NCBI GenBank assembly: GCA_964425715.1
Contig: CAYRNO010000003.1
Coordinates: 1 to 62,792 of the forward strand
Direction of reading: 5' to 3'
Origin: an uncultured Candidatus Saccharibacteria bacterium
GTDB lineage: Bacteria > Patescibacteriota > Saccharimonadia > CAILAD01 > BJGX01
DNA length: 62,792 nt
This document shows, one piece after another, positions 11,155-15,318 of the stretch. The notes under the pieces were generated by a model, which saw only the letters and a program-made list of their open reading frames with translations, was not told the origin of the DNA and made no database searches. Numbering within the stretch: the first letter of the stretch is position 1; every line of letters begins with the position of its first letter. The translations under genes were made by a program, and so were the position numbers.

Positions 11155-13143
11155 ATGGATATTACCGATCTCATCAAGACGATTCTCGAAAAAGGTACCT
11201 ACACCACACTAGACAGACTAGTTGATACAGAGGACTTTCAAGACAGACTGGCAGATAGAGAAAGACTTTTTGGTCTACTTGCTAATTCAGACTCTGATAT
11301 TGCTATAGCTCTCAGGGCTGGACATATTGAAATGTGCGAGCTCTTACACTCAATGCCAGAGTACTTGGCTTTGCAGCAAGCTTCACAAGGCGATATTCCG
11401 GACCCATATATGTATGAGCTTCTGGATGCAGTCGGCAGAGCATTGGTTGAAGTTGCAGGATTCTGCTTGCCAACACCTATACTTCAGGTAGCAGAGCACA
11501 TTGGTGCTCTGGACGCTGATGAGCAGATCAAATGGATCGGCCTAGTCTACGACGGATTTCAATACGCCTATGATGCTGCGAAACAAGTTCCTAAGAAGAA
11601 TAGTTCAGGCGTAGATGTGATCTGGACTATGGATACTGATAGCTTAGGTGAGATAGATATCACACAATCTGATATAGATACTATAGTTGAATACTACACA
11701 CACGCCGGAATGGTAGATCAAGCCAACACAGTGTGTAGAGCTTTGGAATGGCTCTCTGAAGAAGAATTGGATGATCAACCTGATTATTTCGATGAAGCTG
11801 TCAATCTAATCCTGGATTATTATGACAACAAGCATGTTCAAGTCTTTCCCTGGCTATATGACGTAACAGAGCTTGAGTATCCTCTAGAACGAGCCATGCC
11901 GGCTTCATATGGTGTCTTTGGCCAGTCTGGCAATATCCCTACCTGTTTTGGTATGAGTATCATGCTGACGGCTTTCGCAAGAATGACTGGGCTAAAAACC
12001 ATGTTGGTTAGTCCGATTGAGGTCGCCGATGACTTGCACAAAGAAGCTAGAGGAATTGATGCAGTTGCCAAACTAGATCATCTAGATGCAGTTGGTTTTG
12101 AGCGACAGGAATTTAGGGATAAACTCCATGCAGTTGCCAAAGAATCAGCCGACTATCAAGCTAGGATCTACGACTTCCATTACTCCATAGCCATACAGGT
12201 AAGTGATGGACGATGGGTTCATCTTGACCCGTATATGAGGCACTTTGGTGTTTTCGATGACGATTGGGAGCTACAAAGAATATTTGAGATTCTAGAGAAG
12301 TATCAATCGGTACTTCCGGGTCTCAACCTGATCAGCTTTGATGGAGGGTCTTTGAGGCGTCGACTTGTAGAGTTTATCGATGTACTCAAAAAAGCAATCA
12401 ATCAAGCTGAAAGAGTGATGCAGGCTATAATAGAGAAACCATATCCATCTGAAAATATCCTAGAATACTTTGATGATGGTATTGCCTGGCTGAGCTTTGA
12501 TGACACTGGCGATGTGATCTGGCTTACAGATACACTCAATGCACTAGAAGATACAGATGAGCTTTTTTTGAACTATCTCGCCCCATTTGGAGACCAGATT
12601 ACCCCCGAGCACGTAATAAGTCTACGAGAGTATTTTTTCTCCTCACAATTATTGGGAGATCCTCAGATCGATGATCCTGATCAGGAAATATTCAATGAAC
12701 GAATTCAGGCCTATTGGGATCTCTTCTATGATGACGAAGAATTTAAGCGAGATAAGATTGAAAACATTATCTTGCATTTCATCAGAATAGTAATAGAAAG
12801 ATGGAATACTCTCATGGGGGAAATAGAACATACTCTACTAGATCCTGTAATGCAATTCTCTTTGCCAGAGTACAATATAGCTCTTGCTGCAGTAGGTCAT
12901 GCAAGGTGCTGGACAGAAAACGATGTATCTGGTAGAGTATTGCTAACACTGTCATCGTCGCAGTTCTACTGGCACGATGCAGTTGATCTTTCCAGTGGGT
13001 ATGAGCAGAGTGATGCAGATCATTCGGATGCGCTAAGAGCAGAGCAAATGCTTCGCGCACTTCCATTTCTGCATCGTGCTTGTACTAACAAGCTGGAGTA
13101 CCTGTCGCAAATGCGAGAAACACAACCAACCAGGGAGGAATAG
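11155..13143 (+). CDS. large acidic hypothetical protein with a transglutaminase/papain-like Cys-His-Asp arrangement
   Basis: 662 aa. GNIPTCFGMSIMLTAFARMTG (Cys), then FHYSIAIQVSDGRWVHLDPY (His...Asp). SD AGAGGAG precedes the ATG. GC in the low-to-mid 40s by sampling. Confidence 0.6.
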   Translation: MDITDLIKTILEKGTYTTLDRLVDTEDFQDRLADRERLFGLLANSDSDIAIALRAGHIEMCELLHSMPEYLALQQASQGDIPDPYMYELLDAVGRALVEVAGFCLPTPILQVAEHIGALDADEQIKWIGLVYDGFQYAYDAAKQVPKKNSSGVDVIWTMDTDSLGEIDITQSDIDTIVEYYTHAGMVDQANTVCRALEWLSEEELDDQPDYFDEAVNLILDYYDNKHVQVFPWLYDVTELEYPLERAMPASYGVFGQSGNIPTCFGMSIMLTAFARMTGLKTMLVSPIEVADDLHKEARGIDAVAKLDHLDAVGFERQEFRDKLHAVAKESADYQARIYDFHYSIAIQVSDGRWVHLDPYMRHFGVFDDDWELQRIFEILEKYQSVLPGLNLISFDGGSLRRRLVEFIDVLKKAINQAERVMQAIIEKPYPSENILEYFDDGIAWLSFDDTGDVIWLTDTLNALEDTDELFLNYLAPFGDQITPEHVISLREYFFSSQLLGDPQIDDPDQEIFNERIQAYWDLFYDDEEFKRDKIENIILHFIRIVIERWNTLMGEIEHTLLDPVMQFSLPEYNIALAAVGHARCWTENDVSGRVLLTLSSSQFYWHDAVDLSSGYEQSDADHSDALRAEQMLRALPFLHRACTNKLEYLSQMRETQPTREE

Positions 13144-13147
13144 CCTG

Positions 13148-13351
13148 ATGCCCAGGCGTACCCAGAAGGACATGGCAAGAGAGATCCAGGGTCTGCTCGA
13201 CGCCGGCAAGACCCATGCGTGGATCATGGAGCATCACCCGGAGCTCGCCAACGGCTGGAATGAGGTAGCCAAGGGCAAGATTGCCCAGCGACCCCCTCGT
13301 CCACCGGGCACCATCGAGCTTCGTCGCACCGTCACCGCCGACCTTCCCTAG
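13148..13351 (+). CDS. high-GC cassette ORF A (67 aa, basic, Pro-rich tail)
   Basis: ATG at 13148 lies 8 nt after the GGGAGGA SD. About 64% GC by hand count with G/C-rich third positions. Chosen over the longer ORF-track start at 13076, which overlaps the upstream gene. Confidence 0.6.
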   Translation: MPRRTQKDMAREIQGLLDAGKTHAWIMEHHPELANGWNEVAKGKIAQRPPRPPGTIELRRTVTADLP

Positions 13352-13360
13352 GGAAGGTCG
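13339..13360. repeat. 22-nt perfect palindrome centred on CTAG, containing the TAG stop of ORF A
   Basis: cgaccttccCTAGggaaggtcg is self-complementary. The stop codon is 13349-13351. Confidence 0.9.
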
Positions 13361-13366
13361 CAGAGG

Positions 13367-13419
13367 CCTCACGAGCGAGGTAGCAGAGCAGTCTGCTACC
13401 TCGCTTAGTGGGGTTTTTT
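13367..13419 (+). terminator. bipartite hairpin plus T-run (cassette module copy A)
   Basis: CCTCAC-GA-GCGAGGTAGCAG-agcagt-CTGCTACCTCGC-TTA-GTGGGG-TTTTTT. Confidence 0.8.
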
Positions 13420-13435
13420 AATTCGATATCAACAA

Positions 13436-13463
13436 TTGACAAAAAGCAATAATAGTGTATACT
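13436..13463 (+). promoter_or_regulatory. sigma70-like promoter for ORF B
   Basis: TTGACA, 16 nt, TATACT. AT-rich sequence between two GC-rich units. GGGAGAG SD before the ATG at 13498. Confidence 0.55.
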
Positions 13464-13497
13464 AATATCGACGATCGTCATCTACAAAGGGAGAGAA

Positions 13498-13860
13498 ATG
13501 AAAACGATCGAGTTCTTGTATAAGACGTGGGCGGGCGTATTGCTGGCCTTGGTCCATACGGGGATCCTGGTCTACTGGGCCCAGCCTGGTGATCACAACA
13601 GCATGTGGGTGAACATCACACTGTCCATCTTCATGTTCCTGCCCATCGCCACGATCATCGTGCTGATCAACCGTGGCGGAATGAGCATGGCCCTCGGCCT
13701 GATCTACGCGTTGAGCTTCTCCATCTTCGTGGTGGGGCTGGCGTACTTCGATCGAGCGCTGCTCACCAGCATATACCTCGGTGTGCTGGCTTCGCTGATG
13801 TGCAACGACGTGATCCGTCATTTCATCGAGGTCGAGCAGCGACATTTCTCCGCGCCCTAG
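13498..13860 (+). CDS. high-GC cassette ORF B (120 aa, 3-4 TM membrane protein)
   Basis: About 56% GC. Roughly five-sixths of third codon positions are G/C by hand count. Hydrophobic segments throughout. Promoter, SD and terminator are all present. Confidence 0.7.
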   Translation: MKTIEFLYKTWAGVLLALVHTGILVYWAQPGDHNSMWVNITLSIFMFLPIATIIVLINRGGMSMALGLIYALSFSIFVVGLAYFDRALLTSIYLGVLASLMCNDVIRHFIEVEQRHFSAP

Positions 13861-13871
13861 GGCAAGCGCGG
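13850..13871. repeat. imperfect palindrome centred on CTAG, containing the TAG stop of ORF B
   Basis: ccgcGCCCTAGGGCaagcgcgg. Perfect 10-nt core GCCCTAGGGC plus outer complementary arms. The stop codon is 13858-13860. Confidence 0.8.
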
Positions 13872-13875
13872 ACCG

Positions 13876-13929
13876 CCTCACGGGCGGGGTGACAGAGAAA
13901 TCTGTCATCCCGCTTAGTGGGGATTTTTT
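13876..13929 (+). terminator. bipartite hairpin plus T-run (cassette module copy B)
   Basis: CCTCAC-GG-GCGGGGTGACAG-agaaat-CTGTCATCCCGC-TTA-GTGGGG-A-TTTTTT. It starts 15 nt after the stop, the same offset as copy A. Confidence 0.8.
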
Positions 13930-13942
13930 ATTTGGCTTAAGA

Positions 13943-13971
13943 TTGAAAATAACGAACTTATCTGATATATT
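13943..13971 (+). promoter_or_regulatory. sigma70-like promoter for the 150-aa ORF
   Basis: TTGAAA, 17 nt, TATATT. Confidence 0.55.
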
Positions 13972-14020
13972 TTGCTACTACAGCACCTTAGTAGCCTAGC
14001 CGACAAACGACAAAGGAAGA

Positions 14021-14473
14021 ATGATGGCAGAAGAAGATACGGTTGAAGTATATAGCCGAAATTGTTTGGTAGCAGTTGTATATGCTCCAGATCACGGCAC
14101 TGCAGTACAGGTTTTTCAGGTTGTTGAATGCGAGGTAATATCTAGCGGCAGCCCAAATACAGTTGTCGAATTTGAATCAGATGTTGAAATCAGAACCCCA
14201 CGAGATTATCTACACGTGGGTCCGATTGGTTCAGAAAACCGTCACATCTGTGTTTATCGAACTGTGGGTGGAGGACATCGAGTAACTTGTGGCTGTTGGA
14301 ACTCCGACAAAGATATAAAAGGCGGTACTATCGATGAGTTCGCCGAGCGCGTAGAGCAAGTTTATGGAGATGATGATGAGGAGCATTTCCAAAACAAGCT
14401 CTATTACGATCAATACATGGCATTTGTCGCTATGGCCAGGTCTCGTATCTCAGAGTGGCAACAAGAAGCATGA
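14021..14473 (+). CDS. hypothetical cytoplasmic protein (150 aa, acidic, Cys/His-containing)
   Basis: AAGGAAG SD. HRVTCGCWN segment. No family recognised. Confidence 0.6.
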   Translation: MMAEEDTVEVYSRNCLVAVVYAPDHGTAVQVFQVVECEVISSGSPNTVVEFESDVEIRTPRDYLHVGPIGSENRHICVYRTVGGGHRVTCGCWNSDKDIKGGTIDEFAERVEQVYGDDDEEHFQNKLYYDQYMAFVAMARSRISEWQQEA

Positions 14474-14556: not shown

Positions 14557-15318
14557 ATGCAAAAAAAGTTAGTTTCTCTTCGTAAGTTCAATTTTGTAAT
14601 GTCAGGACTGCATTTTGCCCAGGCAGTTGCGATAATAGTACTGGCAACTGATTTCAAACTGCCTCTCAACTATACATATTTGCAATTTAATCCATCTACC
14701 CAGACCCTATTTCAACAAACCAAATTGATTGCAGATATCCCATTAGTCTGGCTGATAGTGGCTTTTTTACTGCTCTCATCTCTTGCACATCTTTTTATAG
14801 CTACAATACACAATAAAAAGTACAATCAGGATCTAGCAAAAGGCATCAATAAGGCAAGATGGATAGAGTATAGTCTATCGGCATCAGTCATGATGGTCGC
14901 TATAGCTATGCTAGTAGGAATATATGACATCGGCACATTGATACCGATATTTGCACTAATTGCAGTCATGAATCTTTGCGGACTTATCATGGAAGTACAC
15001 AATCAAACTACTGAGAAGACCAACTGGCTTAGCTACTGGGTAGGATGCTTGGCAGGAATAGTCCCATGGATAATTATCGGCATATACTTCTGGGGCAGTG
15101 CGCAAAATGGTGCTGCACCACCTACTTTTGTATACTTCATCTTCTTCTCGATATTCGTATTCTTCGATGCCTTTGCTGTCAATATGGTGTTGCAGTACAA
15201 GAAAGTTGGAAAATGGCAGGACTATCTATATGGAGAAAAAGCTTATATTATACTGAGTCTTGTAGCCAAGTCCGCATTGGCATGGCAAGTATTTGCAGGG
15301 ACTTTGCGACCTGTTTAA
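14557..15318 (+). CDS. heliorhodopsin
   Basis: 253 aa, 7 TM. RWIEYSLSASVM, GCLAGIVPW and YGEKAYIILSLVAKSALAWQVFAGTL closely match heliorhodopsin 48C12 as remembered. Schiff-base Lys at residue 238 (AAG 15268-15270). GGAG SD. Confidence 0.88.
   Translation: MQKKLVSLRKFNFVMSGLHFAQAVAIIVLATDFKLPLNYTYLQFNPSTQTLFQQTKLIADIPLVWLIVAFLLLSSLAHLFIATIHNKKYNQDLAKGINKARWIEYSLSASVMMVAIAMLVGIYDIGTLIPIFALIAVMNLCGLIMEVHNQTTEKTNWLSYWVGCLAGIVPWIIIGIYFWGSAQNGAAPPTFVYFIFFSIFVFFDAFAVNMVLQYKKVGKWQDYLYGEKAYIILSLVAKSALAWQVFAGTLRPV

Follow-up and report, generated by a model that had tools for sequence, protein, structure and literature searches.

Phage morons are extra prophage genes that carry their own promoter and terminator and have a deviant GC (guanine plus cytosine) content, and the attC sites of integrons have the core sites RYYYAAC...GTTRRRY. 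Intrinsic terminators consist of a GC-rich stem with a stable tetraloop and a U-run directly 3′ of it. Two-hairpin clusters within 15 nt after stop codons have been reported as common termination units (Gupta & Pal 2021, PMC8355165), and a terminator hairpin is reported to need 10-15 nt of free mRNA between it and the ribosomal A site to fold fully (Li et al. 2015, PMC4824070). Here, we describe a locus that shares features with each of these systems. It lies in a 62,792-nt (62.8-kb) stretch of DNA from an uncultured Candidatus Saccharibacteria bacterium (contig CAYRNO010000003.1 of assembly GCA_964425715.1, positions 1-62,792), referred to below as the window. Two small GC-rich open reading frames (ORFs), ORF A and ORF B, each end in a module made of a short hairpin around the stop codon and a long hairpin with a T-run. 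We consider it probable that the modules are paralogous copies of a compound Rho-independent terminator, that the genes are old and vertically inherited, and that some relatives lost the ORF B unit by recombination between the repeats.

ORF A (67 aa, 13148-13351) and ORF B (120 aa, 13498-13860) lie on the + strand, as do all features below unless noted. CCTCAC starts at 13367 and again at 13876, in both cases exactly 15 nt past the stop. Each module spans 58 nt; the pair shares 79% identity, and the CCTCAC...GTGGGG pattern has two matches in the window against zero expected. Terminator hairpin 1 (13367-13419) comprises an outer 6-bp CCTCAC/GTGGGG stem, an inner 14-bp stem, a GCAG loop and TTTTTT; terminator hairpin 2 (13876-13929) is built alike but has a GAAA loop and ends in A plus TTTTTT. 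An earlier note, made from the letters alone, had described a 12-bp stem with a 6-nt loop and a 2-nt bulge. The letters are as it described, but RNAfold pairs the supposed 2-nt bulge and its opposing TTA as G.U and A-U, closing the structure to a near-continuous helix of about 20-22 bp that contains a single bulged A and is capped by a 4-nt loop. The modules fold with minimum free energies (MFEs) of -58.9 and -49.1 kcal/mol (z = -8.5 and -5.9). Our alignment of modules 1 and 2 bears out the earlier count of three compensatory pair changes and one G-C to G-T (G-U) change in the 12-bp stem.

To these two copies can be added those of relatives. In 13 distinct module copies found 3′ of ORF A or ORF B in relatives (20 pairs by 13 copies, or 260 cells), 99.6% of cells in the long stem hold standard pairs, and both sides have changed in 11 of the 20 pairs. 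In 500 shuffles, neither pairing nor covariation ever reached the level of the real alignment, and a shift of the partner strand by 1-3 columns left only 42-50% pairing. This level of pairing, together with the two-sided changes, argues that the fold of the long stem is under selection and that compensatory substitutions keep it paired, as the earlier note had proposed. The loops are GCAA, GAAA, GAGA, GCAG or GAAG (GNRA-type), closed by an invariant AGA/TCT in the 13 copies, and the outer stem occurs in relatives as CCCTAC...GTAGGG and CCTCGT...GCGGGG. All 13 copies have a U-tract of 4-6 T within 0-3 nt of the stem, the weakest being ATATTTT in L013 (L-numbers are our labels for the relatives' loci). 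The modules sit on the coding strand just after the stops, with the next promoter 17-21 nt past each T-run. For Saccharibacteria, a group with hardly characterized transcription signals, they provide a covarying terminator structure with good support.

The modules appear confined to this locus. A covariance model built from the 13 copies (R1, run with filters off) scores module 1 at 80.8 bits and module 2 at 82.1 bits; its next hit in the 62.8-kb window reaches 13.8 bits, and the further copies that the earlier note had suggested looking for were not found there. A degenerate module pattern has no match in the GTDB species genomes or IMG/VR, and in the JGI metagenomes it matches one contig, at the same locus. 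Rfam reports only tRNAs above threshold in the window; its best score within 13000-14100 is 24 bits, for a generic hairpin, against a threshold of 40. Two module copies in the window also set this element apart from the many dispersed copies of repetitive extragenic palindromes and miniature inverted-repeat transposable elements (REP/MITE-like repeats). The spacing of exactly 15 nt from stop to CCTCAC, which the earlier note had emphasized, holds for both window copies and gives way to 12-17 nt in relatives. Stop-codon read-through or recoding can be rejected: although the window module contains an in-frame TAG, shifts of 1-3 nt in the spacing break the frame in relatives.

The shorter hairpin encloses the stop codon. 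Stop-codon hairpin 1 (13339-13360) is a perfect 22-nt palindrome, as first described, with 11+11-nt arms that are 100% complementary, TAG at the apex and a 5′ arm formed by the last codons of ORF A. Stop-codon hairpin 2 (13850-13871; CCGCGC/GCGCGG, again with TAG at the apex) is weaker, with a 6-bp outer stem and 2-3 inner pairs. In all 15 copies examined, 6-11 bp enclose the stop. There are at least four unrelated arm sequences: CGACCTTCC/GGAAGGTCG, CCGAC.TGCC/GGTAGTCGG, CCGCGC/GCGCGG, and GCTCGA/TCGAGC, the last occurring in ORF B relatives with either TAG or TGA. Most copies enclose a TAG; L105 has TGA instead, and the distant L110 has TAA. Because both arms and stops vary, the conserved feature is a hairpin with the stop at its apex and not a CTAG palindrome; the latter description, on which the earlier note centered, fits the window but fails in relatives, where one ORF B allele reads CTTAGG in place of CCTAGG and another has TGA. 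As controls for the MFE of the 38-nt stop-centered segment, we took the 79 window ORFs that encode 100 aa or more; their median is -2.8 kcal/mol. ORF A, at -17.5 kcal/mol, lies below all 79 controls, and a single control ORF of the 79 lies lower than ORF B (-12.2 kcal/mol). In L110, the TAA occupies the loop of a 5-bp hairpin immediately before the terminator.

The two modules would close two transcription units, one comprising ORF A and a large gene upstream and the other ORF B with its near-consensus promoter. ORF A (ATG at 13148, TAG at 13349-13351) starts 4 nt past the TAG of a 662-aa gene (11155-13143). It has no promoter of its own, and its Shine-Dalgarno sequence, AGGGAGGA (13132-13139), lies within the last codons of the 662-aa gene and is invariant in five strains. 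The two genes probably form one operon, transcribed separately from ORF B. ORF B is preceded by a sigma-70-type promoter, TTGACA-16-TATACT (13436-13463), which matches 11 of 12 consensus positions, is the best match in 10 kb and is kept in relatives as TTGACA...TAGTGTAT. Its Shine-Dalgarno sequence, AGGGAG (13488-13493), is conserved in the alignment of relatives. With its own terminator, ORF B thus has the makings of a self-contained promoter-gene-terminator unit. The earlier note had correctly read the promoter, both Shine-Dalgarno sequences and the 4-nt intergenic distance; its description of each ORF as a self-contained unit is right for ORF B and wrong for ORF A, which is promoterless and joined to the 662-aa gene.

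From this anatomy, we propose that the modules act as terminators. A short hairpin, whose 5′ arm is the last 3-4 codons, encloses the stop; after a gap of 12-17 nt, roughly the length of mRNA under a terminating ribosome, comes a stem of about 20 bp with a GNRA-type cap, followed by the U-run. The small hairpin might insulate or help the terminator by filling the ribosome-footprint spacer, and it may keep the terminator stem free of competition from the GC-rich 3′ part of the coding sequence. The 12-17 nt between stop and stem matches the reported 10-15-nt minimum (PMC4824070). That requirement was established experimentally with E. coli tR2, whereas the relation drawn here comes from spacing alone. 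Like the hairpin-cluster units (PMC8355165), each module has two hairpins less than 15 nt apart and within 80 nt past the stop. It differs from those described there in that its first hairpin is half coding, holds the stop in its loop and has arms that co-evolve with the C-terminal codons. Intrinsic terminators in general share the GC-rich stem, stable tetraloop and adjacent U-run, as well as the position on the coding strand between a stop and the next promoter. They differ from the modules in length and stability, in the conserved apex and in the preceding stop-codon hairpin.

Several observations weigh against this interpretation. Termination at the modules is itself inferred from their anatomy. 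At about 20 bp and about -40 kcal/mol, the stem far exceeds in strength the window's other terminator-like sites, which are AT-rich and have 10-14 pairs, and a terminator function does not account for this excess. The apical AGAG-N-A-N-TCT stays constant on a stem that otherwise covaries, which could reflect sequence-specific recognition by a protein and not mere stability. The hairpin around the ORF B stop, taken singly, is only weakly stable (z -0.9 to -1.6), and in L001 it is weakened further by a synonymous substitution. Nor do the hairpins follow their positions (window 13876-13922 compared with L016 6255-6300): the B hairpin of the window shares 88% identity with the L016 A hairpin but only 67% with the L016 B hairpin. 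Because similarity does not track position, terminators seem to have been exchanged or converted between the two sites, and their history probably includes exchanges beyond what we can reconstruct here. More widely, the ORF B hairpin of the clade with a 67-aa ORF A is nearest to the ORF A hairpin of the clade with a 77-aa ORF A (82-88%), compared with 67-71% to the ORF B hairpin of that clade. Finally, GC content at third codon positions (GC3) has been kept at 0.73-0.94 and synonymous divergence is 2-4 times slower than in the flanking genes, neither of which a terminator explains.

The genes themselves have a long history at this locus. Exact and near relatives of ORF A came solely from Logan and ENA assemblies. 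In every close relative, 4 nt separate ORF A from the preceding 662-aa gene; ORF A identity ranges from 100% down to 53%, and its GC is 0.62-0.66 and its GC3 0.73-0.84 throughout. Between these lineages, the flanking genes (the 662-aa gene, DsbD and heliorhodopsin) are at synonymous saturation, with a proportion of synonymous differences (pS) of 0.72-0.82. ORF B is found intact, at the same locus and with the same promoter, in both sub-clades (67-aa and 77-aa ORF A), where its GC3 is 0.74-0.94. Four remote ORF A relatives (E about 1e-7 to 1e-8) emerged from a profile search against 1.84 billion representatives, and we inspected the gene context of two, L107 and L110. Both belong to lineages of about 50% GC and carry a large and a small gene as a pair (1990-4207 in L107 and 3-996 in L110). 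The small gene end-overlaps a homologue of the 662-aa gene, with 36% identity over the full length (E 3e-136) in one and 37% over the C-terminus in the other, and is the GC-richer partner in both (GC3 0.81 versus 0.55, and 0.65 versus 0.47). Since the pair is found again where the large gene is only 36-37% identical, the association is ancient; since the small gene is GC-richer everywhere, its GC excess is a property of the family rather than the trace of a recent import. Judging from conserved position and composition, ORF A and ORF B appear to be old, lineage-restricted and vertically inherited Saccharibacteria genes.

Within the window, this excess is confined to one place. ORF A and ORF B are its sole high-GC island: in windowed GC over the whole window, the 13-14 kb bin has a value of 0.537, compared with 0.34-0.46 in all other 1-kb bins. 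The GC values estimated by hand in the earlier note (about 64% for ORF A, about 56% for ORF B, about five-sixths G/C at ORF B third positions, neighbors GC-poorer) agree with the computed 0.64, 0.56 and 0.84. ORF A has a GC3 of 0.76, the 21 large window ORFs have GC3 values of only 0.27-0.43, and codon preferences in the two island genes run opposite to those of the genome. An assembly artefact is ruled out, as more than 20 independent assemblies contain the island between the same flanks. Antisense coding as the cause of the GC3 can also be rejected: the antisense frame across ORF B is broken by CTA in L001 and shortened in L011.

The strongest competing explanation takes this composition as its starting point. 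The GC-rich gene bodies and the oversized 3′ hairpins might be co-selected for stable, structured messages that avoid AU-rich endonuclease sites and 3′ exonuclease attack, with purifying selection acting on synonymous sites. We regard this as a tentative possibility, less well placed than the terminator reading. In its favor, GC3 stays at 0.73-0.94 across lineages whose flanking genes are synonymously saturated. At 4-fold degenerate sites of conserved codons, deep lineages are 70% identical in ORF A and 44-78% in ORF B, versus 34-39% in the flanking genes, and there are few G-to-C or C-to-G swaps at those sites. The ORF B mRNA body also folds slightly better than its shuffles (z = -2.9). Window ORF A differs from its nearest relatives (L001, L002, L004 and L010) at three positions only, all synonymous, with A/T in the window and G/C in the relatives. 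These differences are consistent with AT-biased mutation on a GC-rich gene and would fit mutation working against GC retention. On the other hand, the ORF A body is not significantly more stable than shuffles (z = -1.5), and covarying structure inside the ORFs is only hypothetical. Part of ORF A's GC follows from its Ala/Gly/Pro/Arg-rich composition (GC1 0.66, GC2 0.49). Moreover, the locus is a recombination mosaic, and a younger coalescence of the island could contribute to, or mimic, slow synonymous change. Because the amino-acid divergence of ORF B is nevertheless large (49% identity, nonsynonymous divergence dN 0.45), selection at synonymous sites is a serious possibility.

An extended version of this idea is more doubtful still. 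The minigenes may be hyper-stable messages in which long-lasting synonymous purifying selection keeps a GC-rich body, a stop hairpin and a GNRA-capped terminator in an AT-rich genome of the candidate phyla radiation (CPR), while the terminator repeats double as breakpoints for shuffling between strains. If true, selection for GC in ORF A would reach back to the ancestor of lineages with a 36%-identical partner gene, and whole genes would be under an unusual nucleotide-level selection that overrides the genomic mutation bias. The long-lived GC excess (GC3 about 0.8 and slow synonymous change, against a genome GC3 of 0.27-0.43) is the point that deserves follow-up. Apart from it, the feature is best read as largely ordinary, a lineage-specific compound intrinsic terminator that is present twice.

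It is unlikely that the modules are instead regulatory RNA devices. One such device would be a translation-coupled attenuator, in which a ribosome at Pro-UAG occludes the base of the terminator and causes read-through; another would be a protein site, for example one where the ORF A product binds the apical AGAG-NAN-TCT. The spacing does lie at the limit of the ribosome footprint (PMC4824070), and ORF A ends in Pro-TAG in all members of the close clade. The apex is invariant on an otherwise covarying stem, and hairpin 2 with the following promoter stretch is 95% conserved, versus 60-85% identity in the coding flanks. The predicted ORF A fold, a small three-helix N-terminal domain (predicted local distance difference test score, pLDDT, 73) with a disordered, basic Arg/Pro/Gly tail, points in the same direction. 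Yet the spacing varies over 12-17 nt, and ORF B ends in Leu-Glu-stop in one sub-clade. The downstream units each have a strong promoter, so read-through is unneeded for their expression. The ORF A model has no Foldseek match in the PDB, nucleic-acid binding by ORF A is only hypothetical, and the distant ORF A homologue in L107 is followed by a different terminator.

Gene content between DsbD and the heliorhodopsin gene differs among relatives, a variable presence that the earlier note had suggested checking for: L013, L017 and L102 are without ORF B. In L013, ORF A and the module 1 spacer are joined to a hairpin identical to window module 2, together with its downstream flank; in L102, an A-type hairpin is retained and joined to the flank that lies 3′ of the B hairpin in its relative L105. 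Both junctions fall within the two direct-repeat modules but at differing ends, the 5′ edge in L013 and the 3′ edge or T-run in L102. Because the crossover points differ inside the repeats, homologous crossover fits better than cleavage at a fixed site. We infer that recombination between the terminator repeats has removed the ORF B unit repeatedly, by a homologous and not a site-specific mechanism. A different kind of loss is seen in L104 (JGI contig OEIV010000292.1, 8300-9601), which is 99.93% identical to L001 over 5.9 kb and lacks the 662-aa gene, ORF A and module 1, so that DsbD is followed directly by the ORF B promoter. The L104 breakpoint falls in promoter sequence, and the four mismatches of the long match are all grouped at this point, within the promoter spacer.

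These rearrangements could also suggest that the hairpins are the recombination sites of a small cassette array, attC-like or substrates of a single-strand transposase, on which a site-specific enzyme would act on the folded strand. Like attC sites, the stems are imperfect palindromes with an extrahelical base, 3′ of small co-oriented genes that are gained and lost as units. Hairpins bound the presence or absence of ORF B in two sub-clades, and hairpin type is not tied to position. We nevertheless find this quite improbable. The junctions lie at differing points, and the L104 deletion ends where there is no hairpin. The outer CCTCAC/GTGGGG stem departs from the attC core, ORF B comes with its own promoter, and both the T-run and the GNRA loop are typical of elements that work as RNA. 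A locus holds only two copies, with none in the rest of the 62.8 kb, and the pattern scans of GTDB, IMG/VR and JGI gave one same-locus contig between them. No recombinase, for which the earlier note had suggested looking elsewhere in the genome, and no integrase was found among the 18 larger window ORFs tested, a scan that left the smaller ORFs and the rest of the genome outside it.

The earlier note had interpreted the two genes as moron-like cassettes, recently imported from a high-GC donor (an actinobacterial host, a phage or a plasmid) with native terminators and un-ameliorated GC. We consider this very unlikely: although GC and GC3 are far above the genome's, codon usage is inverse, ORF B has the promoter, terminator and variable presence of a moron and the 662-aa gene and ORF A are jointly missing from a 99.93%-identical strain, the setting is not a phage, ORF A lacks a promoter, both genes keep their locus through deep divergence and ORF A its GC3 of 0.73-0.84 where the flanks are saturated, the small gene is GC-richer than its partner in L107 and L110 too, and the donor search was empty. 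The window is part of a cellular Saccharibacteria chromosome and not a phage or prophage, encoding DnaK, DnaJ, FtsH, LepA, RNase Y, RuvB and MurJ (dnaK, dnaJ, ftsH, lepA, rny, ruvB and murJ), with a LepA 73-81% identical to those of Saccharibacteria metagenome-assembled genomes. ORF A, ORF B and the 662-aa protein have no match in PADLOC or PHROGs, and ORF A and ORF B have none in Pfam, IMG/VR, GenBank phages or PLSDB plasmids. Among 5.8 billion protein clusters and 1.84 billion representatives, the only members are relatives in the same gene context; the GTDB genomes and JGI metagenomes likewise held no relative outside that context. Of the three outcomes that the earlier note had named as telling against its own proposal, two were found (vertical conservation at the same GC, and no further module copies), and the third, a failure of covariation with more copies, was not, as the covariation holds. 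Since the island looks imported and yet is native, a GC island with strong terminators in a CPR genome is no proof of horizontal transfer.

The operon partner of ORF A has no Pfam family above threshold. Residues 262-359 of the 662-aa protein contain a Cys...His...Asp motif with invariant Cys264, His342 and Asp358 that resembles the core of transglutaminases and cysteine proteases; the Pfam Transglut_core match is sub-threshold (E 0.1-0.14). Together, the two genes define a conserved pair, a large protein with a transglutaminase-like motif and a small GC-rich protein with a predicted three-helix fold. ORF A evolves with a ratio of nonsynonymous to synonymous divergence (dN/dS) of 0.23-0.44. 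Among close strains, the 662-aa gene is hypervariable, with a dS of 0.75-0.97 and an amino-acid identity of 83-86%; when the window is compared with L001, the neighboring DsbD, ORF A and heliorhodopsin genes have a dS of 0.07-0.13.

ORF B is a predicted membrane protein with invariant NRGG and GLAYFDR motifs and four hydrophobic segments, in accord with the 3-4 transmembrane segments first counted. Its family comprises 3 clusters among the 5.8 billion proteins. An antisense frame (13462-13908, - strand, 89-148 aa) is often called instead of ORF B, as in L002, L003, L005, L011, L016 and L103. This frame is open because it is codon-aligned with ORF B, which avoids TTA, CTA and TCA codons, and its selection by gene callers is one reason why ORF B homologues are mostly missing from protein databases. 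A 5′ stem pairing the ORF B leader with codons 3-5 (CGATCG) is unsupported (RNAalifold -0.19 kcal/mol, zero covariation).

An ENA scaffold of 786 nt, L100, shows the ORF A terminator followed by sequence with a GC of 0.59-0.68 that contains a 114-aa antisense ORF (500-786). The near-identical L101 continues AT-rich where L100 continues GC-rich, and L100 is probably a chimeric low-coverage assembly.

Downstream of ORF B, a 150-aa gene (14021-14473) matches phrog_20532, of unknown function (E 6e-14). Between strains it has diverged strongly, with an amino-acid identity of 77-78% and a dS of about 0.9, and L016, L017, L102 and L105 lack it. The heliorhodopsin gene follows at 14557-15318 (Pfam PF18761, E 9e-100), about 700 nt downstream of the island, and is missing in some relatives (L016 and L017). 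The 150-aa gene has a promoter-like site, TTGAAA-17-TG-TATATT (13943-13971), which lies inside the most conserved stretch of the locus: the 120 nt of 13870-13990, spanning terminator 2 and the promoter region of the 150-aa gene, are 95% identical between the window and L011, compared with only 58-87% in the coding sequence around them.

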